Source of the DNA: a virus
Length of the DNA: 64,000 bases
Reading direction: 5' to 3' (one strand)
Virus record (IMG/VR): IMGVR_UViG_3300022562_001969
Location: 1-64,000 of that record
Below are positions 9,160 to 49,064 of this stretch, piece after piece. The notes below the pieces were generated by a model, which was not told the DNA's origin, searched no databases, and worked only from the letters and a program-made list of their open reading frames with translations. The translations under genes were made by a program, and so were the position numbers. Position 1 is the first letter of the stretch; each line of letters starts with the position of its first letter.

Positions 9160-9284
9160 ATTCGCGTCAGATTTTTTTACAACGCTTGCGCCGGCGCACA
9201 TTGCCCTCCCCCAAACTTATGCTAAAATAAACATAACCCAAAACAAAAAGGCGCCCCACCTTAGTAATAGCTGATTCTGCAACT

Positions 9285-10365: not shown

Positions 10366-10428
10366 TAGCCTCGCTGATTGATCTACTGATCCGAAGTCAG
10401 CTGCTCTTATCCATTGAGCTACGAGGGC
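10366..10428 (-). tRNA. tRNA-Arg(UCG)-like RNA lacking the T-arm (pseudo-tRNA)
   Basis: GCCCTCG-TA-GCTCAATGGATAAGAGC-A-GCTGA-CTTCGGA-TCAGT then no TTCGA loop; short 3' acceptor strand CGAGG. Confidence 0.7.
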
Positions 10429-23856: not shown

Positions 23857-23893
23857 GTTTCAATCTCTCATTCGAGATAATCGGCCTTTGAAC
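23857..23893 (-). CRISPR. isolated perfect copy of the 37-bp array-1 repeat
   Basis: Identical to the repeats at 25478-26098; adjacent partial GTTTCAATC duplication at 23847. Confidence 0.9.
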
Positions 23894-27205: not shown

Positions 27206-27234
27206 GTTTTCCCCACAGGCGTGGGGGTGAACCG
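27206..27234 (+). CRISPR. solitary type I-E-like repeat abutting an RBS
   Basis: GTTTTCCCCACAGGCGTGGGGGTGAACCG followed directly by GGAGGAGCT-ATG. Confidence 0.85.
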
Positions 27235-27243
27235 GGAGGAGCT

Positions 27244-31549: not shown

Positions 31550-33199
31550 TTATATCTCCAACCGCCCTTGTGTTGGCCCTGCTCTTTCTTCTCTTTGGGC
31601 TTGTTTGAAGGTTCCATAGGCGGGCGGCATTTGTACACTTGCCCCCCCTAACAACGCCTCAATGGTAAGTATCTGAATTTTAGGGTATTTTTGGCCCCAG
31701 GCTACAGCCTCATAAAAACCGGCTGACACCGCCTCCTGGATCATCGGCTGCGTTGGTTCTTCCAGGGTGATAAAAACGCCGATAGCCGCCTTTTCCCGTT
31801 CAACCGTCCCAACCAGATCACGAATATCCCGGCTTGACACCTTGCCGCTCTTGACTTGCGCTAAAACCCGCTTAGGTTTGCCTTTTGCCGTATCAATAAA
31901 GGTGATAACCCCATCGATCCCTTTATCCGCTCCTTTTTTGCCCTTTTTACTGCCCTGGGTCGCTTTGCCCGGTCTGGCCCTAACTAACGACAAGGCCCAC
32001 CATTCAAACTGAAAGCGGTCTTGTTCTGCCAGAAAACGAGCAGAGCCTATTGTTTCAGGCTCGCCCTTGACTTCAAACGTTGTGTCCGGAAAGGCTTCTT
32101 GTAGACGATATTTTTGCAAGGCAATAGATAAATGGGTGATGTCAATACCTATCCACTTTCGGCCTAGTTTTTCAGCGGCTACTATCGCAGTACCACAACC
32201 GCAAAATGGATCAAGGACTACATCACCAGGGTTGCTACTGGCTGAAATGATACGTTCTAGTAAAGGTAAAGGTTTTTGTGTAGGATAACCCAGACGTTCA
32301 GCATCAGAACTTTGCAAAGGATTTATATCAGCCCAAATGTTTGTAATAATTGTTCCTTTTTGTTCGTTCAAAAAACGTTTAAGCGCAGGACGTTTACTAA
32401 AATCATAGGAACCATCTTTGTGACGTGGATAATAAATGCGCCCTTCATCGTGTAACTTTTGCATGGTTTCAGGTTTATAACGCCAACCTTTAGCAGGATA
32501 CGGAAAGCCTAGCCATTCGTACATCATATTGGGTCTAGGATTTGGACTTGTCATATTATCCAAACGATATAAACCGCGTCCATTATTATCATCAAATCGG
32601 TAATTTTTTTGGATATATTCCAAATCATATGGTCCATATTGAACAATAAACAGGTTTTTTTTGGAACGTTTATAAAAAAGAATTATGTCAGCAATATCAG
32701 CAAATTTCGTCTTTGCGTCACTATGGGCTGACTGTCGTTTCCAAATAATTTCATTGCCAAAGTTCTCAGCCCCAAAAATAGTATCAAGGATGACCTTCAA
32801 ATAATGGCTTGCTGTTGGGTCACAATGCAGATATAAGCTACCAGTAGGGTTCAATACCCGATGAAGTTCAACCAATCGACTAGCCATCATAACCAAATAA
32901 GCCATCATTTGGTTAGCGCCAATAAAATCACGCATGGCCCCAATCATCTTACTTATATGATCTGGTGATTCTGTTATCAATTCGTGATAGGTTTCCTCAG
33001 CGGCCGCGTTCCAGTGCCAAGTATCATCAAAAGCCGTTATCTGCGCCTGGCTATCTTGCCCACTTTCATCTTTGAATAAGACATTATAGCTGCGCTTTGA
33101 GTTAAAGGGGGGGTCAAGATAGACTAAATCAATACTTTCATCTGCTATGTAATCACGTAGAATTTGAAGGTTATCGCCATAATAAAGGGTATTTTTCAT
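31550..33199 (-). CDS. N6-adenine/N4-cytosine DNA methyltransferase fused to an Mrr-like endonuclease domain
   Basis: DPPF, YPTQKP, DPFCGCGT; C-terminal DKGIDG...QVKSG. Confidence 0.9.
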   Translation of the reverse strand: MKNTLYYGDNLQILRDYIADESIDLVYLDPPFNSKRSYNVLFKDESGQDSQAQITAFDDTWHWNAAAEETYHELITESPDHISKMIGAMRDFIGANQMMAYLVMMASRLVELHRVLNPTGSLYLHCDPTASHYLKVILDTIFGAENFGNEIIWKRQSAHSDAKTKFADIADIILFYKRSKKNLFIVQYGPYDLEYIQKNYRFDDNNGRGLYRLDNMTSPNPRPNMMYEWLGFPYPAKGWRYKPETMQKLHDEGRIYYPRHKDGSYDFSKRPALKRFLNEQKGTIITNIWADINPLQSSDAERLGYPTQKPLPLLERIISASSNPGDVVLDPFCGCGTAIVAAEKLGRKWIGIDITHLSIALQKYRLQEAFPDTTFEVKGEPETIGSARFLAEQDRFQFEWWALSLVRARPGKATQGSKKGKKGADKGIDGVITFIDTAKGKPKRVLAQVKSGKVSSRDIRDLVGTVEREKAAIGVFITLEEPTQPMIQEAVSAGFYEAVAWGQKYPKIQILTIEALLGGASVQMPPAYGTFKQAQREERAGPTQGRLEI

Positions 33200-33575
33200 T
33201 GGTTGACCACCTGACCAGGCCAGGCTATAACAAATGGCAAGTGAACGGTTCACCATCATGCCCGTGGAGAATACCCTGATTTTATCCGAGTTTGGGATGA
33301 CAGGCAAAAAAGACGGTCGTCCATCGTCCATCGCCCATCGTCGGTTACTTGTTTTCAGGCCAAAAGGGTATATAATTGATTTAGCGACATTTTGGCTTGA
33401 TAGTCTGATCAAGATATAATAGTAAAAGAAGCTCCAACCTCTGACAGGCTATCTGTCCAAAGTGTCGCAACTTGAGAGGTCTGGGGCTTCTTTTTGGTGC
33501 TTCAGGATTTTCCGTGGGAACCACTATATCGCCATACAAGAAAAGTAAGCCAACTTTCAAAGATAGGTTCGCAAG

Positions 33576-35627
33576 ATGACTGAAAGCCGCCAACCTGGTA
33601 GGAATTTTAGGGATGAATTACTTAAGATTTTGTCAGGGATGACCGCTTTGGATGACCCTGACAACCGATATCGGCTATTGGACAAGTTGCCACTAGAGGC
33701 AGTAGCAACCATACGACGCAATTCTGCTAAGGGGACCGACCTATACAATATCGTTCAGGCTGCCGAAGGATGGGGACAATTGACCTCTGGAGAGTGGGCC
33801 TTGGTCGTTATCGCCCAAAACGCCCTATCTCTAGTTAAAGGAACCCACCCCGGTCGTCAGCTAGAGGCTCTTTTAGCTGAAAGGGTTATTCATCAGGCCA
33901 AGCCAGGCCGGCAGATCCCCCTTGATCTGCCAGCGCGAGAGGAGAATTTTATAGACCGTAAGGACGAACTGGTATCTCTACTCACCGAATTACAACCAGG
34001 ACGAGTAGTCACTTTGACTGGGCCGGGGGGCATGGGCAAGACTGCCCTGGCCGCGGAAGCCGTTGGCCAACTGGTGGTTGATCATAAGCCCCCTGAGCGT
34101 TTCCCGGATGGCATCTTCTTTCATAGCTTTTACAACCAACCCCAAGCCGGTTTAGCCCTGGAAAGTCTGGCCCTGGCCTTTGGCGAGGAAGCCAGGCCAA
34201 CGGCCCAGGTAGCGGCACAACGGGCGTTGAGCGGCCGGCAGGCCTTATTGGTGTTGGATGGCGCTGAAGATGCGGATGACTTGGCGGCCGTGTTAGCGGT
34301 GCGCGGGGGGTGTGGGGTTTTAATAACCAGCCGTAATCGGGGCGATGCGCCGGCCGTGTTGCAAGACCTGGCGCCCCTCAAACAGCAAGACGCCCTGGAC
34401 TTATTACAACGCTGGGCTGAAGCGCAGCTTGATGACCAGGCGGCGGCCATTGCCATCTGCGAACTGGTGGGGAGGCTGCCGCTGGCGGTGCGTCTGGTAG
34501 GGCGGTATCTGCGTGAGACCGGGGAGACGGCCAGCGAGTATCTAGCCTGGTTACAAGAAACCCCGTTAGAGGCCCTGAACCAGGGGCGGCGACGCGAAGA
34601 AAGTATACCTGTCTTACTTGAGCGCAGTCTAAAGCAGGTCAGTGAGGCGGCGCGGCAAGTGTTGGCGGTGGCCGGCCGGCTGGCGCTGGCCCCGCTGCAA
34701 CAAGAGGTGATGGGGGCCGCTTTGGCAGCCGAAGCGCGTGAGGTGAGACAGTGGTTAGGAGAATTGGTGCGCTATGGCTTGCTGAGCCGGGACAAAGGGC
34801 GTTATGCCATCAGTCACGCCCTCATTCACACCTACGCCAGTGAGCGGCTCAATGTGGCGGAGGAGATGGTCGAGCGGTTGGTGGCTTTCTATGTCGCTTT
34901 GGCTGAACACTTTAGCCAGCAAGGATTGGCAGGCTACCAGGCGCTTGATGGGGAGCGGCCTCACCTGCTGCGCTTGATTGCAGGCTGCGCGAAAGGAGAT
35001 GATTGGCTGGGGGTTCGCAAGCTGGTCTGGGCCATTGATGGTTATTTGTCAATTCAGGGTCACGCCAGCGAACGACAAACTGCCCTAGCGACAGGGCTAA
35101 CAGCCGCCCAACAACTGGGCGACCGCCAAGATGAAGGGGCATTTTTAGGCAGCCTGGGGACCGCCTACTACGACCAGGGGGAGCTGGACAAAGCCATCGC
35201 CCATTCTCAGCAAGCCCTGGTCATCCACCGCGAGATTGGCTACCGCCAGGGGGAGGCTGCTGTTTTAGGCTACCTGGGAACCGCCTACAGCATCCAGGGG
35301 GAGCTGGCCAAAGGCATCGACCATTATCAGCAAGCCCTGGTCATCCACCGCGAGATTGGCTACCGCCAGGGGGAGGCTTATAATTTAGGCATCCTGGGTC
35401 TCGCCTACCGCGCCCAGGGGGAGAGGGCCAAAGCCAGAGAATACTTAGCCCAGGCGCTCACTATTTTTGAGGCGATCAAATCGCCCCAGGCAGACGCAAT
35501 TCGTGAACAGTTGACTATGCTGACTATGTTAGGCCGCCTCCATATACTCTTAGCAATGTGTCAGGCCATCTACGAGAAAGGATTGATGAGGCAGCTTTTG
35601 CCGCTTTTCAAAAGGCTTATTCACTAA
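33576..35627 (+). CDS. NLR-like STAND protein: effector-associated-like N-domain, NB-ARC, TPR repeats
   Basis: GPGGMGKT, LLVLDGAE, LITSR, GRLPLAV; 40-aa TPR repeats. Confidence 0.88.
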   Translation: MTESRQPGRNFRDELLKILSGMTALDDPDNRYRLLDKLPLEAVATIRRNSAKGTDLYNIVQAAEGWGQLTSGEWALVVIAQNALSLVKGTHPGRQLEALLAERVIHQAKPGRQIPLDLPAREENFIDRKDELVSLLTELQPGRVVTLTGPGGMGKTALAAEAVGQLVVDHKPPERFPDGIFFHSFYNQPQAGLALESLALAFGEEARPTAQVAAQRALSGRQALLVLDGAEDADDLAAVLAVRGGCGVLITSRNRGDAPAVLQDLAPLKQQDALDLLQRWAEAQLDDQAAAIAICELVGRLPLAVRLVGRYLRETGETASEYLAWLQETPLEALNQGRRREESIPVLLERSLKQVSEAARQVLAVAGRLALAPLQQEVMGAALAAEAREVRQWLGELVRYGLLSRDKGRYAISHALIHTYASERLNVAEEMVERLVAFYVALAEHFSQQGLAGYQALDGERPHLLRLIAGCAKGDDWLGVRKLVWAIDGYLSIQGHASERQTALATGLTAAQQLGDRQDEGAFLGSLGTAYYDQGELDKAIAHSQQALVIHREIGYRQGEAAVLGYLGTAYSIQGELAKGIDHYQQALVIHREIGYRQGEAYNLGILGLAYRAQGERAKAREYLAQALTIFEAIKSPQADAIREQLTMLTMLGRLHILLAMCQAIYEKGLMRQLLPLFKRLIH

Positions 35628-35929: not shown

Positions 35930-36128
35930 TTGGACGATGGACGACCGGCGGCGACTTAAGACTGCGGCCGCCCATCGTCCATCGTCCATCGTCGCCAAGG
36001 CGAAGCGACCACCGACGACACAACACCGCCGCCCATCGTCCATCGTCCATCGTCGCCAAGGCGAAGCGACCACCGACGACACAACACCGCCGCCCGCCGT
36101 CCATCGTCTATCGTCCATCGTCCGTCGT
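35930..36128. repeat. heptamer REP/STRR-like tract (GACGATG/CATCGTC)
   Basis: Also near 17.1, 26.1, 26.8, 29.8, 31.5, 33.3, 38.0-38.46 and 39.3 kb. Confidence 0.8.
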
Positions 36129-37049
36129 CAGCCCCCGGTACGCCCGGGCCCGGGCCTCATCCCGGCCGCGCAGATAGACCGAAGTCGTGGCGATGTCCGC
36201 ATGGCCCAATTGGTCGCGCACCTTGTCCAGGGAGACGCCGGCTTCGAGGGCCAGCAAAGCCGAGGTGTGGCGCAGGGCGTGAAAGTAAGCCCGGGGCAAG
36301 CCGGCCGCCCTGGCCCGGCGCTTGAACAGTTGGCTCACCCCGGAGGCGGTCAGGCCGGGCCCCGGGCGGCCCCAGCGCCAGGCCGGGAAGACATGAGCGG
36401 GCCGGTGGCCACCCTCGGCCAGATAACGTTGCCAGGCCCACAAATCCCCTTTGACCGCCAAATTAAAATAGACCACCCGCCCCCGGCGCGTCTTGGCCGT
36501 CTCCGCCGCCACCTCGGCGGCCAGCTCGGCCAGGCGCAGTTGCTCCCAGCGCAGGGCGGCCACTTCCCCGGCCCGGCAGCCGGTGACCAGGGCAAAATGG
36601 ACCAGGGCCAGGTCGCGCAGCTCACGCCCCTCGCCGGCGGCGGCCGCCCGGCGCAACTGGGCCAGCAGGCGCTCCACTTCGGCCCGGCTGAGGGCCACCG
36701 GCGGCAGGTGGGGCCGGGGCGGCAAGAGGCGCAATTGGGCAATTTGCCGGGTCGGGTTGCGGTTGGCCTCAATGATCTCTAATTGTTCCAAAAAGTTGAA
36801 AAATGCGCGCAGGTGGGTATAATAGGTGCGCACCGTCACCTCTCCACCGGCGGTGGAGTCTATCCAGCCCATTACCTGACCGGCCGTGACCGGCCAGGCC
36901 GGGCCGATGTAGTCGGCGAAGCGGCTTAAGATATTGGTGTAGTTCTGTAGCGTCTTCGGCCGCCACGAACGTCTCTTGAGAGTGATAAAACCTTTAATGT
37001 GCCCTCCCAGAATGGTATCCGGGAGGGACACAGAAGGCGGCGTAGCCAT
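36108..37049 (-). CDS. tyrosine recombinase/integrase 2 (paralog of 10531-11538)
   Basis: TGCRAGE, AKT, FHALRH, LGHADIATTSVY. Confidence 0.92.
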   Translation of the reverse strand: MATPPSVSLPDTILGGHIKGFITLKRRSWRPKTLQNYTNILSRFADYIGPAWPVTAGQVMGWIDSTAGGEVTVRTYYTHLRAFFNFLEQLEIIEANRNPTRQIAQLRLLPPRPHLPPVALSRAEVERLLAQLRRAAAAGEGRELRDLALVHFALVTGCRAGEVAALRWEQLRLAELAAEVAAETAKTRRGRVVYFNLAVKGDLWAWQRYLAEGGHRPAHVFPAWRWGRPGPGLTASGVSQLFKRRARAAGLPRAYFHALRHTSALLALEAGVSLDKVRDQLGHADIATTSVYLRGRDEARARAYRGLTTDDGR

Positions 37050-37071: not shown

Positions 37072-37152
37072 CTTCGGAGTCAAAACCTTTAGGTTTTTCT
37101 TCGGAGTCGAAACCTTTAGGTTTTTCTTCGGAGTCAAAACCTTTAGGTTTTT
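37072..37152. repeat. 3 x 27-bp tandem repeat upstream of recombinase 2
   Basis: CTTCGGAGTC(A/G)AAACCTTTAGGTTTTT x3. Confidence 0.92.
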
Positions 37153-37222
37153 CAAGCCTGAAGGCTTGGACTCCTCTATTCCGGAGTCGAAACCGGTTCA
37201 CCCCCACGTCTGTGGGGAATAC
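37153..37222 (-). CRISPR. solitary type I-E-like repeat (37194-37222) plus 25-nt spacer-like segment and hairpin
   Basis: GTATTCCCCACAGACGTGGGGGTGAACCG, then GTTTCGACTCCGGAATAGAGGAGTC, then CAAGCC-TTCA-GGCTTG. Confidence 0.8.
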
Positions 37223-37335
37223 GGGCTCCGGTTAATGCCCAAACCTAAAGGCTTGGACTCCTTTGAGCCTTTGAGCCTTTGAGCCTAAAATAAAAACCTG
37301 ACCGGTTTTTGAAACCAGTCAGGTTTGTTACCTCG

Positions 37336-37728
37336 CTACGCCGCCGTGCGTTGCTGGTATTCCACCAGCATCTCGACCGGATCGCGGCCGGCCACGCGGC
37401 CCAGGGCCTCTTCCCAGTCGCCGCTGTGGAGGATGGCGTTGAGGGATTCGACGGCCTGCACCAGGGCCACCTCAAGGTCCAGCAGGGCGACGATGTCCAC
37501 CGCCCCACTCGCCTCTCTGGTAGGGTTGGCGGCGAAGTCAGTCAGGGCCGCAATGGCCTCGACCAGTCTCGCCAGCCCGGGCAACTCAGCGCCGGGGGCT
37601 ACTTCTGCTTCCGGCGCCAGCTCGCCCAACGCCAGGCTGGCCGCCAGCAGACCGGTTGCCGCCAGAAATCCGCGACGGTCTATTTGGTTGTTGGTTTGGG
37701 GGTGTGCTAAAATACGTTCAGTTCTCAT
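37336..37728 (-). CDS. small acidic protein with twin-arginine-like N-terminus (paralog of 8671-9048)
   Basis: DRRGFLAATGLLAA; GAGGAG RBS. Confidence 0.75.
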   Translation of the reverse strand: MRTERILAHPQTNNQIDRRGFLAATGLLAASLALGELAPEAEVAPGAELPGLARLVEAIAALTDFAANPTREASGAVDIVALLDLEVALVQAVESLNAILHSGDWEEALGRVAGRDPVEMLVEYQQRTAA

Positions 37729-37913
37729 GGTAAGCTCCTCTTACTGTGTGAATTAGGGCCGGTTTGATGTTTCAGCATCAGGCCGGCTCGTTCGTTTAAA
37801 GTTGACCACATTATATGCCCAAACTCAGCATTAGTCAAATCCGGCTCAGGATTTATTTTTTTACGACGCTTGCGGCTGGCCGCCGGGCGACGTATACTAA
37901 TAGTAGCTCTCAT
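37725..37913 (-). CDS. small basic peptide (62 aa)
   Basis: Strong RBS CACAGTAAGGAG, but the ORF overlaps the downstream promoter. Confidence 0.35.
   Translation of the reverse strand: MRATISIRRPAASRKRRKKINPEPDLTNAEFGHIMWSTLNERAGLMLKHQTGPNSHSKRSLP
37729..37838 (-). promoter_or_regulatory. repeated promoter/leader cassette, copy 3
   Basis: TTGACT-17-TATAAT, GGTCAA, hairpin nearly identical to copy 1. Confidence 0.75.
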
Positions 37914-37982
37914 GGTATCTCCTTACTGTGAGAGTATGGTTTCGCCTCGTTTTTTAGCCCGCGAGGCGAAGCCTGTTTTTTT

Positions 37983-38277
37983 GGACGATAGACGATGGAC
38001 GATGGACGGCGGGCGGCGGTTTGACGGGCGGCGGTCGTCCATCGTCGGTCGTCGCTTCGCCTTGACGACGATAGACGATGGACGGCGGTTTGACGGTCGT
38101 CGGTCGTCCATCGTCGGTCGTCACTTTGCCTTGGCGACGCTAGACGATAGACGATAGACCGCGGTTTGACGGTCGTCTATCGTCCATCGTCGGTCGTCAC
38201 TTCGCCTTGGCGACGCTAGACGATAGACGATGGATGGCTGTATGGCATCGTCGGTCGTCGGTCGTCGGTCGTCGTTC
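37983..38277. repeat. heptamer REP/STRR-like inverted tract
   Basis: GACGATAGACGATGGACG and its complement repeated. Confidence 0.8.
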
Positions 38278-38377
38278 CGCCAGGCGTCAACTTGTTTGGA
38301 TAGCATACCTCTACGTAGGTCTCCCGTTAGGTTTCCGTTTTGCCGGTTTGGTAAAACGGCCTTGCTGGGGGGGGATT

Positions 38378-38407
38378 ATCGTATCATAGGTGGGGGGGAT
38401 CTGTCAA
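38378..38407 (-). promoter_or_regulatory. sigma70 promoter
   Basis: TTGACA-18-TACGAT with TGn extended -10. Confidence 0.6.
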
Positions 38408-38495
38408 GCGGTTTTAAGCTTCGCGACGATGGACGATAGACGACCGGCGACTAACGACGACCGTCTCTTTTGTTTATTTGTTTATTTGTTTATTT

Positions 38496-38854
38496 ATTTC
38501 AATCCACGCCCCCCGTGAGGGGAGCGACTTCGGTGAAGGAAAAAATTCCTTAACCGATGGGGTTTCAATCCACGCCCCCCGCGAGGGGAGCGACATAAAA
38601 ACAGGCTTCGCTTTGCGGGCTATTTCAATCCACGCCCCCCGCGAGGGGAGCGACTTGGCCGGTCAAGGTGATCCGCCAACCGGTTGCGGTTTCAATCCAC
38701 GCCCCCCGCGAGGGGAGCGACTTGCTGAAACGTTCGTGGTAGACTGTTTCAGTTTGTTTCAATCCACGCCCCCCACAAGGGGAGCGACGCGACCAGCTCA
38801 TCACTATCCAATTCAAAAAGCGTTTCAATCCACGCCCCCCACAAGGGGAGCGAC
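38496..38854 (-). CRISPR. CRISPR array 2: type I-C-like, 6 repeats of 33 bp, spacers of 33, 27, 34, 34, 33 bp
   Basis: Minus-strand repeat GTCGCTCCCCTCGCGGGGGGCGTGGATTGAAAC with variants. Confidence 0.95.
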
Positions 38855-39020
38855 GGCAACATCTGGGTATACCCAGATTATACATAATATATATTGTGGC
38901 GCCTTTTTTGTCAATCGGACAACCGGCTCAATATTGCTCGCTAAATGTTCTTTTTTGGGGTGGTTAAGGTACAAAATAGGCGCGAACCCTCCGGGCAATG
39001 GCTGGGCGCTTGGGGTTCGC
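38855..39020 (-). promoter_or_regulatory. type I-C leader
   Basis: AT-rich segment with GCGAACC...GGTTCGC inverted motif typical of I-C leaders. Confidence 0.65.
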
Positions 39021-39041
39021 AAACCCAGATTAAAGGATGAT

Positions 39042-39124
39042 CGGTTCACCCCCACGCCTGTGGGGAATACTCGTCCATCGTCCATCGTCGCGAAGCGGTT
39101 CACCCCCCCGCCTGTGGGGAATAC
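39042..39124 (-). CRISPR. type I-E-like mini-array: two 29-bp repeats, one 25-bp spacer
   Basis: Repeats at 39042-39070 and 39096-39124; spacer 39071-39095. Confidence 0.9.
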
Positions 39125-39311
39125 GCTCCAAAACGTTATAAAGTTTTAATGTTACAACCGTTCGCTAGCTTAGAACACGGATATGGGGAGGGTAACGGAT
39201 TTTCGACCTGGCTATAAGTAATCCGTTACCTTCTGCCAATCCGCTGTTCTCAAGCTAACCGTGCAATAGCAGCAACGCCCAAACGGTCGTCCATCGTCCA
39301 TCGTCAGCCGT

Positions 39312-39617
39312 CTATCGTCCACCGTCCATCGTCACCCCCGGGCAGCCTTCGACAAGCTCAGGCTGCTGCGGTCGTCCATCGTCGGTCGTCCATCGTCGGT
39401 CGTCCATCGTCGCCCCCCGGGCGGCCAGCGCCGTATTAAGCGCCTTGAGTTCCGCCTCAAGATCACCTATTTTTTTTTGCAAAGCGGTTTCGTTGGCGGC
39501 CATCTTGGCCAACCGCTTCTCCAGGGTAATATTCAGGAGAAGCGCCTGGCTTAATAGTGAGCCCCAGCGTTGGCCGAGGGTATCGACCAGCTCCAAAATT
39601 TGCTGTTCGGTCATCAT
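39312..39617 (-). CDS. small coiled-coil protein (3' end runs into a REP tract)
   Basis: Coupled to the upstream ORF. Confidence 0.5.
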   Translation of the reverse strand: MMTEQQILELVDTLGQRWGSLLSQALLLNITLEKRLAKMAANETALQKKIGDLEAELKALNTALAARGATMDDRRWTTDDGRPQQPELVEGCPGVTMDGGR

Positions 39618-39884: not shown

Positions 39885-41567
39885 TTATCCTAAAATTCCC
39901 GCTGTCTGAAAATCGTTAATGAGTGTTCCCAGCACGTCGGCTATTTCGGCCAATGTCGTACTATCCGCGTCGAATGACCTGTCCGTGGTGACATTGGTCG
40001 GCGTGTAGGTTTGCAAGCCGCCGTCTTTGGCAATGATAACCGTATTGCCGGAGCTAAAAACTACTTTTTGCTGAGTGGTTCCCCCCCCATCATCCTCAGC
40101 GTATAGACGAGTGGTGTTTGCCCCGCCTGCGCCCGGCGCAGTCATCTCTGTAAATTCAATATCTCCCGCCCCCAGGTCGATTTTGGCTGATGGTGAGGCT
40201 ACGCCAACGCCAATATTAGCGGCGGCGGTAATGACCAACCTGTTACCACTGCCCCCTACCGTAAACCGCATCTCATCAGCCGAGTGGTTGTAGACAAACT
40301 GACCAACATTGGCGCTACTGGCGTCGCCAAAATCTATAATGGAGTTTGCCGCCGCGCCCCCTATCAGGGTTAGGCGGACATTGTCTGTAGTATTGACGTT
40401 GTTTTGGACAAAAATCCCGTTACCCGTTGGGATGGAGGGCAACGAGCCGGCTCCGCCAGTAACGTGCAATTTGTATTGCGGGCTGCTTTCACTGATGCCG
40501 ACATTGCCACCCGGCAACACCCGTAATCTTTCGACATTGCCGCCGCTATTATTGGGACTGGTTTTAATGAAAAATGACATCGGCACGGTATTGGCGGCCA
40601 CACTGCCCTCTATCTCGGCCCCAAACTGGGCGGCCAGATTATAATCGGTGCCGTCGTGGGCCTCAAAATTGAACAGCCCTACAGTGTCTCCAGCCTGAAC
40701 TGCCGCCCCCCCGGCTCTGGCTCGCAAAAATGCGGCCTGGCTGCCACGCCCGGCCGTATCCGATTGTCGCGACAACACGATAGCGCGGACGTTGGCCACG
40801 TCCGCATCCTGCACGGACAGTTGCGCCTGAGTGACCGTACCTTGAAACGTATATTGCGTATCGGCCGACCTGATACTAACAGCCTCATTAGTCACATCGA
40901 CATTAAACACCGGCGCGCCGCCATCAGCGTCCAATACCTGGAAAAAGTCCGTACTATCAGTCGTTGGTTGTAGCTTTATCTGGCCGGTAGAGGTAGGTTT
41001 AATGGTTAAGTCGTGGCTGGCGTCTACCGCCAGCGTGGCGTAGACCGAATTATCCGTATGGGTGAGCCGTAGTTGCGGGCCGGCGTTATTGAGGATGTCC
41101 ACCTGATTGCGAGGCGTGGCCACGCCAACGCCGAAAAAGCCGTCACTGCCCCGCAAAAACATATCGCCATTGAAATTGATGTCCACATCCCCTGAGCCGG
41201 GGCCAAGGGTAATCAAATCCTGGGTGGTCTCTGTCAATTTCAGCATCGACAGGCCGCCAGCGGTAAACTCTATCTCATCGTCAGCGAAACAAATTTTGGT
41301 GTCCGGGTCGCCAGTGTGAATGATGCAATCGGCCAGGGTCAGATTACCCACCCCACTCAGATCGCCGGTGATAATCAGGTTTCCGGCCAGGGTGACATCG
41401 CCGTTATTGTCAACGCTCACAGCCGGATCAACCGTCCCATCCGGCGAGACCATGACGCTATGAGGCGGCGCTTCCAGAGTTTTCAATTGGTTCAGATCGG
41501 TAATTAGCCGGATCATCCCCTGATTGCTTTGCTGGCCAATCACCTCGTTGAAATTTGGATCAGGCAT
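39885..41567 (-). CDS. tail fibre protein
   Basis: Repeated GNVGI...P..KLHV fibre motifs; Gly/Thr-rich. Confidence 0.8.
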   Translation of the reverse strand: MPDPNFNEVIGQQSNQGMIRLITDLNQLKTLEAPPHSVMVSPDGTVDPAVSVDNNGDVTLAGNLIITGDLSGVGNLTLADCIIHTGDPDTKICFADDEIEFTAGGLSMLKLTETTQDLITLGPGSGDVDINFNGDMFLRGSDGFFGVGVATPRNQVDILNNAGPQLRLTHTDNSVYATLAVDASHDLTIKPTSTGQIKLQPTTDSTDFFQVLDADGGAPVFNVDVTNEAVSIRSADTQYTFQGTVTQAQLSVQDADVANVRAIVLSRQSDTAGRGSQAAFLRARAGGAAVQAGDTVGLFNFEAHDGTDYNLAAQFGAEIEGSVAANTVPMSFFIKTSPNNSGGNVERLRVLPGGNVGISESSPQYKLHVTGGAGSLPSIPTGNGIFVQNNVNTTDNVRLTLIGGAAANSIIDFGDASSANVGQFVYNHSADEMRFTVGGSGNRLVITAAANIGVGVASPSAKIDLGAGDIEFTEMTAPGAGGANTTRLYAEDDGGGTTQQKVVFSSGNTVIIAKDGGLQTYTPTNVTTDRSFDADSTTLAEIADVLGTLINDFQTAGILG

Positions 41568-42727
41568 TATATATCCTCAAACTCCATCCGGATTTCATCC
41601 ACCTCCTCGCCATCCGGGTTGACGCTGGTGGAGATGCTGCGCAATTGTTTGTTCACCCGCACCCCGGAGCGATTGGACTGCGCAGTCACAAAATCGGCCA
41701 GAAAATAATCCCGGTATAACACCTGCGCCCCCCGGCGCGGGTTGAAGTTGAATTGCTCTTTGGAGACCAGCTCCTTCAGCTTGGCCTTGGCCGACCCTAC
41801 CAGGTCGGCCGCCGTGTCACTCTGCACCGAGTTGACCACGCTCTCACGCTGGGCGATACCCGACACCGCCAGGCTGTCCGTGTCGGTGGCCACCTCTACC
41901 CGGCGATCAGAGCCATAGCCCTGCCCCAGGGCGACCACCACATTGGCTTCGTTGTAGCGGCTGCGGCTGAGGCGCTCCGACTGAATGTTGCCCAATTGCG
42001 CGCTGAAAATGAGAGGGGCGTTGCCGGCGGCGTTTAGACCACCGCTGCCAATGTGCAGCCCCTCGGTGGTCCGGTCAATGCCCAATTGACCGACCTCAAA
42101 TTGAAACTGAAACCCACCCAGATAAGTCACCCGGAAATCGACCTTGTCGGTGATGGCGGCGTTATTCTCGCGGGTGAAATCGCTAATCTCGCGGATGGTG
42201 GCCATTAAATTCTTTCTGGCCTTGGAGCCGGACCAGGTTCCCCCCAGGATCGGATCCGCCGCCAGAGTGACCAAATTCTGGGCCGGATAGTCGCGGCTGG
42301 CCGTCCCACCGGCCCCCACGTTTTCATACACGTATGAGAGCATGACGCTGGAAGCGGCCCCGCTTTTGTTGGCCTGGGCGCTGTCGGTCGGATATAAAAT
42401 CCAGGTTTTTTCTAATAGCTCCTCCATCGCCGGGCCGTAGGAAGTGTAAATCTGCTGGCCGTTTGGCGAGAGTGAATCGCTAAAAGTTTTGTGGATACCG
42501 TTGAAGATGTTGAGCCAGTCAATGCCAAAGGTGTTATCCTGAAACCAAATCCGGACAATGGAGTCGTCCTGAATTTCGCCAATGCGACTATCAAACCCGG
42601 ATAAGGTGAGCTGGTATTCCCCCTTGGCCGAGATACGTTGGGTGAAAGAGAGCGAGCGGAAATCCTCAAAAATGGCCACAGTGGAGCCGGCCGAGTTTTC
42701 AATATCCACCCGATAAAGAACCGGCAT
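41567..42727 (-). CDS. siphovirus minor tail protein (Gp37-like hub)
   Basis: NVVVALGQGYG..R, YRDYFLADFV; position. Confidence 0.75.
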   Translation of the reverse strand: MPVLYRVDIENSAGSTVAIFEDFRSLSFTQRISAKGEYQLTLSGFDSRIGEIQDDSIVRIWFQDNTFGIDWLNIFNGIHKTFSDSLSPNGQQIYTSYGPAMEELLEKTWILYPTDSAQANKSGAASSVMLSYVYENVGAGGTASRDYPAQNLVTLAADPILGGTWSGSKARKNLMATIREISDFTRENNAAITDKVDFRVTYLGGFQFQFEVGQLGIDRTTEGLHIGSGGLNAAGNAPLIFSAQLGNIQSERLSRSRYNEANVVVALGQGYGSDRRVEVATDTDSLAVSGIAQRESVVNSVQSDTAADLVGSAKAKLKELVSKEQFNFNPRRGAQVLYRDYFLADFVTAQSNRSGVRVNKQLRSISTSVNPDGEEVDEIRMEFEDI

Positions 42728-43725
42728 TAGATCAGCCCCATCAATGTTATACTCGACCCATCGGCGAAATTCCCGGCCGCCACTGCAATATCAATTCGAG
42801 TAATAGCGCCTGTGTTCCGCCACCAGGCCGCCCCCTGGGTAATTTCAAAAGCGGCGCCGTCCCCGAAGAAAGTATTTTTGGAAAGGGCGTTTTTATACCC
42901 GGTGGTTAATCTGTAAAACGGTATCAGAATTTCAAAGCTGTCATAATAATCAGTGGTCCCATTGGCCGCAGTTGTTTTCATATTGCCAATGGACGTGTCG
43001 GCTGCCGCATCGGTCTCGCTCAGTGTGCCGGCTGAGTTAGCTGTGTGCGCAATCCAGTCGTAATTAGCCCCCCCGTCACTGTTGAAGGTCATTTGTAGAG
43101 CGACAGATGCAGCCGCAGTGGTGCCTCTGATACGACCTTTCAACAACAGGTGGGAGAAAAGAGGGGCAATACTTGAAAAAGTGGCCGTGGCGGAGCCACC
43201 GGCGCTGGTAAATACGCCCAGTTTGACCGCCGTCCCTGAAGGGGTGGCCAACACCCGGGCGTCCGAAATGGAAGAGAAATTACCAGCCCCATCCAGGACG
43301 ACATCTACAATGGGCACTTCCCAGGTGGCGGCGGTCTGGGTCAAAACAGCCTTAGAGCTGACTGCGCCGCCTATCCGGGCCAGCCTGACTGTCTGAGAGG
43401 CCGCCACACGCTGCAAAACAATGATATCGGTGGCGTTGATGTTGCCGGGGCTGGCGTTAATATCAAAATCGACATTGGCGTCATTGGTATAAACCCAACC
43501 CTCGACAATGCCCACCCCGCTGGCGATACGGACGGTGGAACCGGCTGGGTTCGTCGGTTCTAACAGACCAGAGTAAGGGGATTGGGTCCAGTAGATCACC
43601 CCGGCCGTGTCAGGGGTGATATTGCTTAAAAATTTGTTTGTGTCCTCCACAATAGCCAGGCTGTAAGAGGAGGCGCCCCCGTCTCCGGCGACTGTGCAAC
43701 TCCATGGAAATGAAAATTCTGTCAT
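42727..43725 (-). CDS. minor tail/baseplate protein (paralog B)
   Basis: VRIASGVGIVEGWVY, DIIVL, LTQTAATWEVP. Confidence 0.72.
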   Translation of the reverse strand: MTEFSFPWSCTVAGDGGASSYSLAIVEDTNKFLSNITPDTAGVIYWTQSPYSGLLEPTNPAGSTVRIASGVGIVEGWVYTNDANVDFDINASPGNINATDIIVLQRVAASQTVRLARIGGAVSSKAVLTQTAATWEVPIVDVVLDGAGNFSSISDARVLATPSGTAVKLGVFTSAGGSATATFSSIAPLFSHLLLKGRIRGTTAAASVALQMTFNSDGGANYDWIAHTANSAGTLSETDAAADTSIGNMKTTAANGTTDYYDSFEILIPFYRLTTGYKNALSKNTFFGDGAAFEITQGAAWWRNTGAITRIDIAVAAGNFADGSSITLMGLI

Positions 43726-44699
43726 TATACTACTCCATATAGCGTCATCGCAGTGCCGGCTCCGCCACCAGCCGCCACAACTACTCTTAAGGAATTTATG
43801 GGAGAGGCGGAACGAAAAAACCAGCATCCACTCCGGCTAATCTTGAAATCTGCCACACTCTGGAAAAATGCGCTGCGGGTCAGAAAACTTTTGGCGGGGG
43901 CATTGGTAGCGTAGTCAGGCATAAGGATTTCAAAAACGCTAAAATAGTTGGCCGTGCTGTTGGTCTCAACCGCTGTATAACTGGCGCCTCCCCCCGTGCC
44001 GTTCGTCTCGGACTGAGTACCGCTTGCGTCGGCCGAATGAATTATTTGAGAGCCAATCGGTACACTGGTGTTAACTTGCAGGCTGATGAATGAGGAAACA
44101 GTGGCGTTGCCACGCCCAATCAGTTTTAATGCAGAGAAAACGGGGGGGATATTATCGAACCGGTTATCCAGCGTGTCGAATATTTCCGCTATTTTTATTA
44201 TTGTCCCGGACGATACGGCCAAAGCTCTGACATCGGTTATTGAGACTAACTTCCCCGTTCCATCCAGGGACAATTCCACCAGGGGCACTTCCCAGGTGGC
44301 GGCGGTTTGGGTCAGCGTGGCTTTGGCGTTTGCTTCCCCCCGCAGTCGCACTAATCGCACGGTCTGATTAATCAAAGAGCGGCGTAAAACAATGATATCA
44401 GTGGCGCTGGCGTTGCCGGGGTTGCCGTTAATATCAAAATCGACATTGGCGTCATTGGTATACAGCCACCCCTCTACAAAGCCCACCCCACTGGCGATAC
44501 GGACGGTATTGACACCATCTGGCAAACTCGGTCCTAATAAATTTTCGTAGGGTGATGTTGTCCAATAAACGACCCCATTTTCGGTGGGATTGAAATTACA
44601 CAACAAGCGATTGGTCGCGGTCACCATACTCAAGCTGAGCGAATTCGGGCCACCGTCGCCGGTGGCCGTACAACTCCAGGGAAAGGAAAATTGGGTCAT
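43725..44699 (-). CDS. minor tail/baseplate protein (paralog A)
   Basis: N-terminal half highly similar to the next gene. Confidence 0.72.
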   Translation of the reverse strand: MTQFSFPWSCTATGDGGPNSLSLSMVTATNRLLCNFNPTENGVVYWTTSPYENLLGPSLPDGVNTVRIASGVGFVEGWLYTNDANVDFDINGNPGNASATDIIVLRRSLINQTVRLVRLRGEANAKATLTQTAATWEVPLVELSLDGTGKLVSITDVRALAVSSGTIIKIAEIFDTLDNRFDNIPPVFSALKLIGRGNATVSSFISLQVNTSVPIGSQIIHSADASGTQSETNGTGGGASYTAVETNSTANYFSVFEILMPDYATNAPAKSFLTRSAFFQSVADFKISRSGCWFFRSASPINSLRVVVAAGGGAGTAMTLYGVV

Positions 44700-44708
44700 C
44701 GGTCTACC

Positions 44709-45650
44709 TCAACAGGGCGCAAAGGCCGAAATATGGCGCACATAATAGGTAAAGGTCACCTGCGAGACGCCCTCCTCTACCGCCGCGCCCACGACGGTGA
44801 TGGAGTTGTCGCCGCTGGCGGTCAAATCCCCCACGGTGGCCAGGGCAAAGGTCGCCAGGTCGGAATCGCTGGAAACTGTGCCAATCAGGTTAACCCCCAG
44901 GTCGTTGAGGACGGTGACCGTATTGGGCAGGATGGTGATGGTCACCGTCTCGCCACTGGCCACAATGTAATCCAGTTGAATACTCTGGCCGGTGGTGTTG
45001 TTGATGATTTCCGGCGAGGTCATGGGGCCGGTAATGACGATGGTGATCTGATCACCTTCCCAGGTGCCCGGGTAATTGATGGTCGTGGTGGTGGCGATAT
45101 AGTCATTGGCCAGGCAGGTGTCCAGACAGGTGTCCAGACAGGCCCCGGTGATGGTTGAGGTAAACGTTTCGGTCAGGGCCGTGGGCAGCCGCCAAATGGG
45201 GTCCTCGCAAAAAAAGCGCACCGATTCGCGCAAATCGGCCGTGGACAGGCTGCTCTCCCCATCCCAATTGCCGGCCGGCCCTTCCAGGATTCTGGCCCCG
45301 ATCTCAATCTCGACATTATCGGGCCGGATAAAGAGCAATGTCCCGGCGGCGACCACACTGGACCGGTTGGGCCGTAAGGCGTTAATCATCTCGGCCTCAT
45401 TGCACCAAAAATCATCCCGCAGGCAACCCCGCTCGTAGAGTTGCAGATTGATAATCCGGGCGTCCAGCCGGAAATCGCGCACCGTGACCCCGTTCTGGAA
45501 GGGCCCGCGATCTTGCAGATAGGTAATCGGCGGCATCCCGGCCGCTTGCCAGGACATCAGCGCCCGCCGGCCGCCAAAAAGGGGATATTGCACCCCGTCC
45601 GGCGTGATATAGTAGGCGAATTCAATTAGCTGATAATTTCGATTAAACAT
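44709..45650 (-). CDS. distal tail protein (Dit-like)
   Basis: Follows the tape measure gene; FFCEDPIW, ITIVITGPMTSPEI. Confidence 0.78.
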   Translation of the reverse strand: MFNRNYQLIEFAYYITPDGVQYPLFGGRRALMSWQAAGMPPITYLQDRGPFQNGVTVRDFRLDARIINLQLYERGCLRDDFWCNEAEMINALRPNRSSVVAAGTLLFIRPDNVEIEIGARILEGPAGNWDGESSLSTADLRESVRFFCEDPIWRLPTALTETFTSTITGACLDTCLDTCLANDYIATTTTINYPGTWEGDQITIVITGPMTSPEIINNTTGQSIQLDYIVASGETVTITILPNTVTVLNDLGVNLIGTVSSDSDLATFALATVGDLTASGDNSITVVGAAVEEGVSQVTFTYYVRHISAFAPC

Positions 45651-45656
45651 AGCCTT

Positions 45657-48600
45657 TTATGGCGCGCTGGCCAAAATATAGGATAACTGGGATTGATCCG
45701 CAATCGGCGTCCCGCTATTATTGGTATAGTTAACCGTGGTGTTATTGGTGGTGTTATTTTGCGAGAGCGCGCTGTTAGTGATTTGCTGGGCCGACGCCGG
45801 TTGCTCATAAACGCCCGCCTCCACCTGGGCCACAATCTGGTCAAAGGTCAGGCCGCTCGAAAAGGCGGTCGAGGGCACAATCCGGGCCAACTCGCGCACC
45901 TGATCCAATATCTGGCTGAAGGTCATCCCGCTATCCAGCCCGCCCAGGCTTAAAAATCGTTGTTCAGCGACTTTTTGCATATCGCCCGCGGATAAAGGCG
46001 GCGGCGGCGCGGGGGGTGGGGGCGGTGGCGGCGGTGGGGGGGGCGGTGGCGGGGGCGGCAAGGCCGGGGTGGACCGCTGAGACATCATCTGGATGAACCT
46101 ATCCCATTCGCTCATCTCCGGGCCCTGCACATCCAACTTTATCGGAGGCGGCGAGGTGATCACCAAATCCTTATTGATCTGGGAGACCGTATTTTTGAGC
46201 GCCCCTCGTTGGCTCTCAATGCCCCCGACCAGGCCGGTCATGATATCGGTGCCGATGCCGGCAAAGACGGTACTGGGCGATCTGATGCCCAGTACGGCTT
46301 TAGCCTGGCTAATGGCCCGGCTGACCACATCGCCCAGGGCGTTTACGATCTGGGAGGCGTTGGTCACAATGCCCGATAATAGCCCCTGCATCAGGCTGGC
46401 CGCAACGGTCACGAATTGAGGGACGCTGCTTTGTAGCAGGCCAATGGCCTCCCGGACCAGGGTGGCAATGCCCACCAAGAAATTAGCTACAAACCGTTTC
46501 CCGGCCTCGATGATGGCCGTAAACATATCCGGGATGATCGAGCCGCCGATCAGGGCGTCGGACAGAGAGGTGAAGTAGTCAATGACGCCGGTGACCAGGC
46601 CGCTAATCAGGGAGTAGATAGTTTGCACGAAGCCGGTCACCAGACCGACGACGCCACTGATTAAGCCCCCGACGATATTTTTTAGCCCCTGGCCCATCTG
46701 CGTCCAGGCCGCCTGCACCTGCTCGCTATTGCCTTGGAATAGGCCGACAACCAACTGCACAAAGCCGGTTATAAATTGCACGACGCCGGTCAAGGCGGTA
46801 GTGATCCCGGTGGCCACCTTTATGAAGGTGTCAATCAGGGGGCCAATGGCCTGCGAGATACCGGTCACCATCCCCACCGCCACCCCGACCGCAGCCAACA
46901 TTGCCGCCCCGATGACCGTCAAGACAACGGTGATGGCCGGCTGTAACGCCTGCCACAATTGGCCCAGTTGAGCCAGGAGTGGCCCAAAACGGCCCAGGGC
47001 GGCTGAGGCGTTTTCAACGAAAGTGGCGATAACCGGCCCAATTAAAGAGATAGCCACCCCAATGACAGTGGAGATCAGAGACCATGCGGTGGCGATGACG
47101 CGCTGAACATTTTCCCAGGTGTCCCGGATTGTCTGGCGAATACCCTCGCTATTTTTCTCCAAAAAGGCCAGCATATTGGCCAGCCCATCCCGGATGGCGA
47201 CCACTATCCGGCCCAGGCTGAGGAAGATCGTATCCGAGATATTGCTCATAGAATTACTGGCGTCGCGGTCACTTTTTCCCCAGAATGTGCGCCAGATACC
47301 GCCAATCGTCTCCAACGCTCCACTAAAAATTTCCTGAATAATCGGGAAGGCAGCCCCTAAAATATCCTGCACCAGGCCAAACGCCTCTTTTACCACCCCC
47401 CCATATTCCGCCCAGAATGAGGCCCAGAAGATTTTTAAGGCGTCAAATGTTTCGGTTATGAAGCCACTGATAAAGCTGATGGCCGTCTGGGTCTTTTCCT
47501 GGATGCCGCCCCAATTGTTGCTCCAGACCACCCCCAGGGCCACCACCGCGCCGGCCACCAGGCCAATCGGCGAGAGCAACAGCCCAATCGCGCTCACCAG
47601 GGCTGTAATGCCAAGGTAAATAGCGCCGCCGGCCAAAATGCCCCCGATAGCGATCAAAACCCCCTTGAGCGCCTCCGCATGGTCAGAGACAAAGTCGCCA
47701 ATCGTCATCCCCAGGTTGATAACGCCGGCGGCAAAGTTTTTGATCCGGGTTAACTCCGGCCCTTCTACCCCAAAGGCGGCCAGCCCGGCGATAAAGGAAT
47801 CTAGTAGCCCTTGTCCCCCTAGCAAACTGCCGATGAAGGTAGTCAGACCCTCGCCGGCCCGTTTGAAGAAATCTACAAATGGCTCCGCGTTATTGGCCAC
47901 AAAATCAGTGATAGCCCGGACAACGGCCGTCAGAGCGGGCAGCAAGGCCGTCCCCAGTTGGAGCTGGATGTCCTCAACCACCCCGCCCAAAATGTCCATT
48001 GCCCCGGCGAAGTTGTCAACCCGGGTCGCCGCCGCTTCCTGGGCCTGTCCAGAGGCGTTGACCGTGGTGGAAAGGGCCTCAAATTCAGAGCGAGTCAGGC
48101 CGGCCAGGGCCAGCACTGTCCGGGCAGCGTCCGCTCCCCCCAGGGCGGTGGCGGTCTGAGCTTGCTGGGCCTCTGTCATCCCACTAAAGGCCCCGTGTAA
48201 TTGGTCCACCACCTCGGCCATTGACCGCATTTGGCCAGATTCGTCGAAAAGGGTGATACCCAATTCGTCCAATGTCTCCTGCAGCTTGTCGGTCGGAGCG
48301 GCCAATCGTTGCAAAAAAGTCTTGAAACTGGTGCCGGCGTCGGCCCCGCTACTGAATGAAGAGGCTGAAGCGGCCAGGACGGTATTCAGGTCGCCAAAGC
48401 TGACCCCCATCCCGGCGGCGATCCCCCCGGCGTTGGCCAGAGCCAACCCGTAGTCATTAATATCGAATTTAGAGGCCGTGGTCACCCCGGTGATGCCATC
48501 AATGGCGGTTGACATATCGTTGGCTTCAATGTGAAACAGGGCCATCGCGTCGGTGGCAATATCGGCCGCTCTGGAAAAATCGGCTCCGGTCGCGTTCGAC

Positions 48601-49064
48601 AGAGCCACGGTAGCCCGGGCCGCGCCGGAGACAATATCCTCTACCTGTAAACCGTTTTTCGCCAGCATCTCAATAGCCTGGGCCGCCTCCAATGAAGAAA
48701 CCTTCAGATTGGGATCCATCCCCAGGTCAGACACCAGCTTCTTTAGCTGGCTCATCTCATCATCGCTGGCCCCCAGGACGGCGTTAACGCCATCCATCTG
48801 GACTTCCAGATCGGCGGCCATTGAGACGCTATTGGAGAGGAAACCGCCGGCAGCCTGAGTGACCGAGGTGAAACCCCTGGCCAGGAGAGACAGGCCCCCC
48901 GTGGCCAGGTTGCCCAGGACCGTACCGAAGGCGACCGAGCCGGCCCCGGCCCCTTTGACGGTCTTTTCAAACCCATCAACGGAGCCGGAGGCTTTATTCA
49001 TCCCTTGGATAAAGCCGCCCTCGTTCTCCAGTATCAACCTTGCCCCAACCGGTTTTAAGGCCAT
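45657..49064 (-). CDS. tape measure protein (TP901 family)
   Basis: EAAQAIEMLAKNG, GADAGTSFKT, amphipathic repeats, LGIRSPSTVF. Confidence 0.93.
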   Translation of the reverse strand: MALKPVGARLILENEGGFIQGMNKASGSVDGFEKTVKGAGAGSVAFGTVLGNLATGGLSLLARGFTSVTQAAGGFLSNSVSMAADLEVQMDGVNAVLGASDDEMSQLKKLVSDLGMDPNLKVSSLEAAQAIEMLAKNGLQVEDIVSGAARATVALSNATGADFSRAADIATDAMALFHIEANDMSTAIDGITGVTTASKFDINDYGLALANAGGIAAGMGVSFGDLNTVLAASASSFSSGADAGTSFKTFLQRLAAPTDKLQETLDELGITLFDESGQMRSMAEVVDQLHGAFSGMTEAQQAQTATALGGADAARTVLALAGLTRSEFEALSTTVNASGQAQEAAATRVDNFAGAMDILGGVVEDIQLQLGTALLPALTAVVRAITDFVANNAEPFVDFFKRAGEGLTTFIGSLLGGQGLLDSFIAGLAAFGVEGPELTRIKNFAAGVINLGMTIGDFVSDHAEALKGVLIAIGGILAGGAIYLGITALVSAIGLLLSPIGLVAGAVVALGVVWSNNWGGIQEKTQTAISFISGFITETFDALKIFWASFWAEYGGVVKEAFGLVQDILGAAFPIIQEIFSGALETIGGIWRTFWGKSDRDASNSMSNISDTIFLSLGRIVVAIRDGLANMLAFLEKNSEGIRQTIRDTWENVQRVIATAWSLISTVIGVAISLIGPVIATFVENASAALGRFGPLLAQLGQLWQALQPAITVVLTVIGAAMLAAVGVAVGMVTGISQAIGPLIDTFIKVATGITTALTGVVQFITGFVQLVVGLFQGNSEQVQAAWTQMGQGLKNIVGGLISGVVGLVTGFVQTIYSLISGLVTGVIDYFTSLSDALIGGSIIPDMFTAIIEAGKRFVANFLVGIATLVREAIGLLQSSVPQFVTVAASLMQGLLSGIVTNASQIVNALGDVVSRAISQAKAVLGIRSPSTVFAGIGTDIMTGLVGGIESQRGALKNTVSQINKDLVITSPPPIKLDVQGPEMSEWDRFIQMMSQRSTPALPPPPPPPPPPPPPPPPAPPPPLSAGDMQKVAEQRFLSLGGLDSGMTFSQILDQVRELARIVPSTAFSSGLTFDQIVAQVEAGVYEQPASAQQITNSALSQNNTTNNTTVNYTNNSGTPIADQSQLSYILASAP

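Follow-up and report, generated by a model that had tools for sequence, protein, structure and literature searches.

Introduction

CRISPR arrays carried by viruses are known from the Sulfolobales portogloboviruses SPV1 and SPV2, the mini-CRISPR arrays of which take part in interviral conflict (Medvedeva et al. 2019, PMC6858448; review PMC11656645). The spacers of these portogloboviruses target kin, self-targeting is prevented by point mutations or deletions in the orthologous loci of the carrier, and virus-borne arrays have their targets near the array (PMC6858448). Regulatory crRNA-like RNAs are formed by the host CreR/CreA mini-arrays (PMC10120712), the viral mimics of which are termed Cracr (bioRxiv 10.1101/2024.10.29.618823). 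Short guides near promoters are the known regulatory design of crlRNA and Cracr, and their short psi-spacers form Cascades with fewer Cas7 subunits (PMC10120712; bioRxiv 10.1101/2024.10.29.618823). Solitary-repeat RNA anti-CRISPRs are described as Racr (Camara-Wilpert et al. 2023, PMC10651486).

The window analysed here is a stretch of 64,000 nucleotides and forms the first 64 kb of a complete IMG/VR virus record (86,114 bp, with direct terminal repeats). It contains a type I-C CRISPR array of six repeats (R1 to R6) and five spacers (S1 to S5), of which the 27-nt spacer S2 matches a site in the phage itself. Like SPV1 and SPV2, the phage is a cas-less virus with host-type repeats, a leader and a promoter; it likewise has spacers apparently related to its own lineage, carrier loci with point differences and a target near the array. 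Unlike SPV1 and SPV2, it is a bacterial, siphovirus-like phage with repeats that point to a Chloroflexota-type host, its array has five spacers instead of one or two as well as mosaic repeats, one of the self-related spacers is 6–7 nt short, and a matching kin virus was not found in the collections searched.

With the CreR/CreA and Cracr elements, which occur in phages and are sometimes stacked in arrays, S2 shares a short spacer between repeats and a partial match to a PAM-flanked site. Those elements target host cas or toxin promoters, whereas S2 targets the phage at a terminator-like hairpin with no promoter. They keep PAM-proximal pairing (contiguous over at least about 9 bp), lose distal pairing and often have a degenerate second repeat, whereas S2 pairs over 7 nt on the PAM side and over 15 contiguous nucleotides distally, has seed-proximal mismatches and lies between intact repeats. 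With Racr the likeness consists in a cas-less phage with repeats matching host systems, including solitary I-E repeats. Racr consists of a single repeat unit and acts independently of spacer content, so that no self-match is predicted, whereas S2 is flanked by two full repeats in a six-repeat, five-spacer, leader-bearing array.

The phage and its type I-C array

Among public sequencing runs, the best match for the phage DNA was a marine sediment metagenome, and the public runs listed for this DNA included no RNA run. Siphovirus-type tail genes (tape measure, Dit-like, Gp37-like, tail fibre) occupy positions 39885–49064 on the minus strand, and a tyrosine integrase is encoded at 36108–37049 (minus strand, start at 37049). 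The array lies between the integrase and the tail-gene block at 38496–38854 and is read on the minus strand from R6 (38822–38854) to R1 (38496–38528). Its repeats are 33 nt long, and its spacers S1 to S5 measure 33, 27, 34, 34 and 33 nt; four spacers of 33–34 nt are thus joined by one of 27 nt, the usual expectation for type I-C being about 33–36 nt with uniform repeats.

The repeat (about 32–33 nt, a G+C-rich hairpin with the 3′ end ATTGAAAC/T, reading GATTGAAAC at the end in the crRNA (minus) sense) matches repeats adjoining I-C cas operons exactly. In a locus of an Anaerolineae MAG (L039), an identical repeat comes directly after cas5d-csd1-cas7-cas4-cas1-cas2 and on their strand, which confirms both the subtype I-C, as claimed in the original prediction, and the minus orientation of the crRNA. 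The same orientation follows from the repeat end, the position of the promoter and a host-like leader segment. The promoter is a near-consensus sigma-70-type site (TTGACA-17-TATATT, 38886–38914, minus strand) located 32 bp upstream of R6. A leader element at 38960–39026 (minus strand) is 70–77% identical to host I-C leaders (L017, L011, L020 and L039); in L039, the corresponding element lies between cas2 and the first repeat. The likeness of the phage leader to the host leaders extends over about 170 nt. The array is a genuine I-C array with its own promoter and a host-like leader, and it was probably derived from a host.

Three loop variants occur among the repeats, namely TTGT in R5 and R6, TCGC in R2 to R4, and TCAC in R1. 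R1 and R3 end in T, all the other repeats in C. Host arrays with the I-C repeat are internally uniform in their repeats, the last base varying within some of them (L026, L032), and the TTGT loop form was absent from all genome matches to the repeat.

Host assignment and cas genes

The I-C repeat was found in 30 genome loci and occurs in Chloroflexota (Anaerolineae, Caldilineaceae, Litorilinea) and Clostridia. A second repeat type of the phage, of the I-E type and present in four copies, recurs every 61 nt in arrays of three Chloroflexota genomes, one of which also has the I-C repeat. By these repeats, the host appears to be of the Chloroflexota type. None of 256 spacers from host arrays with the same I-C repeat matched the phage, and searches of five candidate Chloroflexota genomes and of 222 kb around host arrays found no site for S2 or for the I-E psi-spacers.

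No match to Cas7 or Cas5 was obtained in the complete 86-kb phage record, and the designation "cas-less" refers to these two families. The phage has no homologs of the ORFs that flank host arrays. A PADLOC scan of all ORFs was dominated by methyltransferase models. Among the genes of the window, a methyltransferase fused to an Mrr-type restriction endonuclease domain (31550–33412, minus strand) and an NB-ARC/NACHT-TPR protein with an effector-associated domain (33576–35627, plus strand) are both defence-like. The only Rfam match in the window at the gathering threshold was a tRNA gene (10366–10428, minus strand).

Spacer S2 and its match within the phage

S2 (38595–38621, minus strand) is the second spacer from the trailer end and matches 37956–37982 (plus strand), 610 bp away on the same element, at 24 of 27 positions. 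The mismatches are at crRNA positions 8, 10 and 26, and the 5′ flank of the site is TTT (37953–37955). The coordinates, the mismatches and the flank had been given in the original prediction and hold on re-examination, none of 100 dinucleotide shuffles giving an equal match; a chance origin is ruled out by the same result. The self-site is the sole match with up to eight mismatches in the whole 86,114-bp genome, and membership of S2 in the dispersed heptamer family described below was rejected on the grounds of this uniqueness.

The spacer is indeed 6–7 nt shorter than the other four, as had been noted, and the comparison with host arrays makes it an extreme outlier: about 250 spacers next to this repeat measured 30–42 nt, none being shorter than 30 nt. 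Pairing from the PAM is unbroken for 7 nt only, up to mismatches 8 and 10; further from the PAM, 15 contiguous nucleotides pair. The repeat base directly before S2 is T instead of C, in agreement with the TTT flank; since some host arrays also vary in the last repeat base, S2 may really have been taken from a protospacer with a TTT flank. In Legionella, TTT ranks second among I-C PAMs, for acquisition as well as for interference (PMC5602111). Because the self-site retains this working PAM and a perfect 7-nt seed, its protection from a host Cascade and from priming is not assured.

The target site

The S2 site falls within an intrinsic-terminator-like hairpin on the plus strand (37938–37982), in which a 13-bp stem (37938–37950/37961–37973) is followed by TGTTTTTTT; the stretch matched by S2 runs from the loop end across the 3′ arm and the T-run. 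The hairpin has a folding energy of −24.2 kcal mol−1 (z=−3.5), none of 200 shuffles folding as well, and was missed by the promoter/terminator scan because of its 10-nt loop. The inverted repeat described earlier at 37941–37949/37962–37970 and the distance of the S2 site, 43–69 bp upstream of the ATG at 37913, were both correct. Inspection of the sequence places mismatches 8 and 10, both of them G/A transitions, on two G–C pairs of the hairpin stem. Such changes would fit a diverged homologous terminator or a structure-preserving escape through G–U pairs. No promoter-like site overlapping the S2 target was returned by the promoter scan.

The start of ORF62 (37725–37913, minus strand), a small basic ORF with a strong RBS, is 43 bp from the S2 site; no homolog of it was found in the databases searched. 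It is followed by ORF130 (37336–37728, minus strand), which has a TAT-like signal and a terminator downstream (37326–37294, minus strand). The only homolog found for ORF130 is a paralog in the same phage at 8674–9048 (66% amino-acid identity). The cassettes containing the two paralogs (8674–9190 and 37354–37874) are 80% identical at the nucleotide level in their 5′ regions, and the shared part includes a promoter-like TTGACT-17-TATAAT and a 15-bp hairpin. The homology ends at 37874 without reaching the S2 site, and a match of S2 to the paralogous cassette at 9 kb was therefore rejected.

A weak promoter-like site (TTGCGG-17-TATACT, 37870–37898, plus strand), below the threshold of the scan, can be read in the first codons of ORF62. 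A hypothetical antisense RNA of about 80 nt starting there could cross the ORF62 RBS and end at the hairpin matched by S2.

Spacer S1 and the remaining spacers

S1 (38529–38561, minus strand, 33 nt) is the trailer-most spacer and forms a palindromic hairpin. It matches positions 82892–82924 of the genome, outside the 64-kb window, at 30 of 33 positions, so that the idea of S2 as the only self-directed spacer had to be given up. The match consists of 29 consecutive identities followed by mismatches at crRNA positions 2–4, and the flank is ACC, which is no PAM. The site lies in the ParB-like gene of the phage, which encodes 388 aa with a ParB-like N-terminal and a methyltransferase-like C-terminal half; the differences at the site alter two residues (TEK versus TDG). 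The chance that three random mismatches would cluster in this way was put at about 0.001 by our own combinatorial estimate. The cluster corresponds to the classic pattern of escape or self-avoidance, here in a coding gene.

Self-targeting spacers can be tolerated through mutation of the PAM or seed. The present spacers resemble such cases in their imperfect matches with changes beside the PAM (S1) or seed (S2), and differ from them in that guide and target are on one mobile element that supplies no Cas proteins. S1 and S2 are the oldest spacers, at the trailer end of the array. Since S1, of normal length, also matches the phage with its mismatches on the PAM and seed side, self-matching is a trait of the old end of the array, and both spacers would appear to derive from this phage lineage. 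The carrier loci of S1 (30/33, no PAM) and S2 (24/27) have point differences, as is the case for virus-borne interviral arrays, and by analogy with these the changes may prevent self-targeting.

No self-match in the phage was found for S3 to S5. Exact scans of IMG/VR with the cores of S4 and S5, and a search of GenBank phages with S3 to S5, gave no target, and their description in the original prediction as ordinary defence guides is therefore a conjecture.

Search for related phages and protospacers

Contigs of kin with 90–96% identity, covering 37306–38012 and 38276–38428, were found in two sediment runs of another study (X2 and X3), and the Logan contigs of kin in run X3 span the S2 target, with about 96% identity over 37862–38012. 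A perfect protospacer of S2 or S1 in kin was not found in IMG/VR, JGI metagenomes or GenBank phages. Exact scans of IMG/VR with an S2/target pattern containing degenerate positions, with the S1 core and with the RBS motif of the cassette gave no match; a scan of JGI metagenomes with the S2 core gave two matches, both in unrelated coding sequence; and nothing in GenBank phages matched the 5.6-kb region. Searches seeded with proteins yielded distant relatives only. The best relative of the ParB-like gene (65% identity over the C-terminal half) is on a contig that does not share the array region, and a search for kin with the Gp37-like tail protein returned nothing.

Further CRISPR elements and repeats

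A two-repeat mini-array of type I-E is present at 39042–39124 (minus strand) and has a 25-nt spacer in place of the usual 32 nt. An AAG-flanked site of this 25-mer (38419–38443) is 8 bp from the −35 box of a promoter-like site on the minus strand (38407..38378). Two further copies of the 25-mer (35975–35999 and 36036–36060), with the flank CGC, match equally well. Three 27-bp tandem repeats (37072–37153) are situated immediately before the integrase start at 37049. The 12 nt that follow a solitary I-E repeat at 37194–37222 (minus strand) match an AAG-flanked motif in the middle one of these copies; the outer two match this seed at 11 of 12 positions. Another solitary I-E repeat, in the region 27206–27246 (plus strand), abuts the RBS GGAGG and the ATG (27244–27246) of a small ORF in which CPQCG forms a zinc-ribbon-like motif. 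Cleavage of this repeat by the I-E processing enzyme of a host would cut the mRNA just upstream of the RBS.

A further array, composed of nine identical 37-nt repeats ending in ATTGAAAC in the minus sense and of eight spacers of 35–38 nt, extends over 25478–26098; none of the eight spacers matches the phage. A lone copy of the 37-nt repeat occurs at 23857–23893, 1.6 kb from this array, in a stretch of low G+C content (42%).

Tracts of 7-nt repeats (GACGATG, GACGATA, GACGACC) are dispersed over more than 25 sites of the genome, most of them intergenic (in the window, for example, at 17114, 26104, 29815, 31450, 35975, 37984–38273 and 39287–39411; in the genome at 80359–85602). Between 37982 and 38290 the heptamers form three tandem hairpin units of about 70 nt. 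These tracts are not a feature of the five candidate Chloroflexota genomes searched.

A solitary I-C repeat is also found in an unrelated phage (78.8-kb IMG/VR contig, L013:4825–4923), with an identical 33-nt sequence on both sides. The upstream copy is preceded by TTG; a guide from this spacer–repeat–spacer unit would match adjacent DNA.

Interpretation of the self-matching spacers

The reading preferred here, tentatively and short of calling it probable, is that the array with S1 and S2 serves to attack sister phages while leaving its carrier unharmed. The cas-less phage would express the array, and the Cas proteins of the host would process and use the guides. In a host I-C Cascade these would attack co-infecting or superinfecting kin carrying matching alleles. 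Both spacers would have been acquired from this phage lineage, and such kin would have the perfect protospacers: that of S2 would be a TTT- or TTC-flanked form of the terminator locus about 600 bp from the array, and that of S1 a form of the ParB-like gene. The copies of the carrier would be protected by changes on the PAM side (positions 2–4 and the PAM for S1, positions 8 and 10 for S2), and S2 would owe its 27-nt length to decay at the trailer end or to aberrant acquisition, not to design. The statements on Cascade behaviour, here and below, are carried over by analogy from model I-C and I-E systems.

Several observations argue for such a use against kin. Of the five spacers, the two oldest have imperfect matches in the carrier, and the mismatches of S1 cluster at crRNA positions 2–4 next to a flank without a PAM. 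The G/A transitions of S2 on stem pairs are what a homologous terminator would show when diverging or escaping with its structure kept, and the T before S2 together with the TTT flank fits true acquisition. The near-consensus promoter and host-like leader in a phage without Cas5 and Cas7, the precedent in virus-borne arrays (PMC6858448) and the occurrence of kin at 90–96% identity in other sediment runs point in the same direction. On the other side, the searches of IMG/VR, JGI metagenomes and GenBank phages turned up no kin in which S2 or S1 has a perfect protospacer; the 27-nt length is not accounted for, given that the roughly 250 host spacers all measure at least 30 nt; and a working TTT PAM and a perfect 7-nt seed persist at the self-site. 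Moreover, two short I-E guides within the same 2 kb match local sites with canonical PAMs, which looks more like design than decay, and the mosaic repeats are unlike those of an array maintained by ongoing adaptation.

The proposal made in the original prediction, considered possible but doubtful after the present analysis, is that S2 is a regulatory guide. A host I-C Cascade with the short S2 crRNA would bind 37956–37982 without cutting, owing to the short spacer, the second-best PAM and mismatches 8 and 10, and would either act as a roadblock on minus-strand transcription into ORF62–ORF130–integrase or disturb the terminator of the antisense RNA. In that case the phage would have several guides, S2 among them, for drawing host Cascades to the lysogeny-side region. 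The shortness of the spacer, its TTT flank and its self-match stood up, and short psi-spacers are typical of crlRNA/Cracr guides; the S2 crRNA would also, on a reading of the strands, pair with the non-template strand of the ORF62 transcript. In addition, the spacer of the I-E mini-array (39042–39124) matches its AAG-flanked site at 24 of 25 positions, the 12-nt seed behind the solitary I-E repeat matches AAG-flanked tandem sites upstream of the integrase, and all three sites are on one minus-strand path towards the integrase. The regulatory part of the proposal fared less well, as the mismatches of S2 are beside the seed and not distal, the flanking repeats are intact and not degenerate, and the target is a terminator-like hairpin with no recognisable promoter. 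The normal-length S1 also matches the phage, and self-matching does not single out S2. In the I-E system of E. coli, spacers longer than 20 nt still interfere (PMC5159557), and TTT functions as an I-C PAM; a length of 27 nt therefore does not restrict a guide to binding, and regulation does not follow from shortness by itself. The I-E 25-mer is a member of the heptamer family with its more than 25 sites, and because of this and of the two equally good copies without a PAM, its apparent targeting may be incidental.

The same set of guides can be taken further, to a temperate, cas-less phage that programs two host Cascades (I-C and I-E) with shortened self-directed guides, S2 being the I-C member, which is rather doubtful. 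That binding without cutting from 38407 to the integrase would tie the expression of ORF62–ORF130–integrase to the CRISPR state of the host must be regarded with equal reserve.

It is unlikely that the array is a captured anti-self array without present use. An I-C host would have taken S1 and S2 from this phage, which would have escaped by changes in PAM and seed and later gained the host array, for which a solitary repeat on the phage may have served as the point of recombination; the self-matches would be fossils and S2 a decayed spacer. The host-like character of the leader over about 170 nt agrees with this course of events, as do the age of the self-matching spacers, the escape-type mismatch cluster of S1, the mosaic repeats, which suggest recombination between arrays, and the solitary repeat copies carried by other phages as possible recombination sites. 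Against it, the near-consensus promoter has been kept, the presence of three CRISPR repeat types at several places argues for use and not accident, and none of the 256 retrieved host-array spacers matches the phage.

Finally, an RNA anti-CRISPR, in which the array would soak up host I-C Cas proteins in the manner of Racr or S2 would be a Cracr that mimics a host CreR/CreA guide and silences a host cas or toxin promoter, the self-match being a by-product (for example, of a co-captured target), is improbable: solitary I-E repeats and a mini-array are hallmarks of Racr/Cracr (PMC10651486; bioRxiv 10.1101/2024.10.29.618823), and I-C-type Cracr arrays with short psi-spacers and varied repeats have been described, but no S2-like site was found in the five candidate Chloroflexota genomes or the 222 kb around host arrays, a guide directed at the host would not be expected to match the phage at 24 of 27 positions, and the array that contains S2 has five spacers and a full leader, unlike a compact psi-array.

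Conclusions

The finding is best placed among virus-borne CRISPR arrays with self-avoidance, with self-directed regulation as a live alternative. If the array is used against kin, it would be a clear bacterial case of a complete, leader-bearing array in a cas-less phage fighting its relatives; self-avoidance would be visible at two loci, and a phenomenon shown mainly in archaeal viruses would be extended. If S2 is a regulatory guide, phages would repress genes of their own by means of host Cascades, CRISPR guides would thus have a new use, and the guide, its site and the candidate regulated genes would all be found within 1 kb. If two host Cascades are programmed, this would be virus-encoded, self-directed CRISPR interference, the known viral crlRNAs being aimed at the host. 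With three CRISPR repeat types in several arrangements, the phage is a good system for studying how viruses exploit host Cas proteins.
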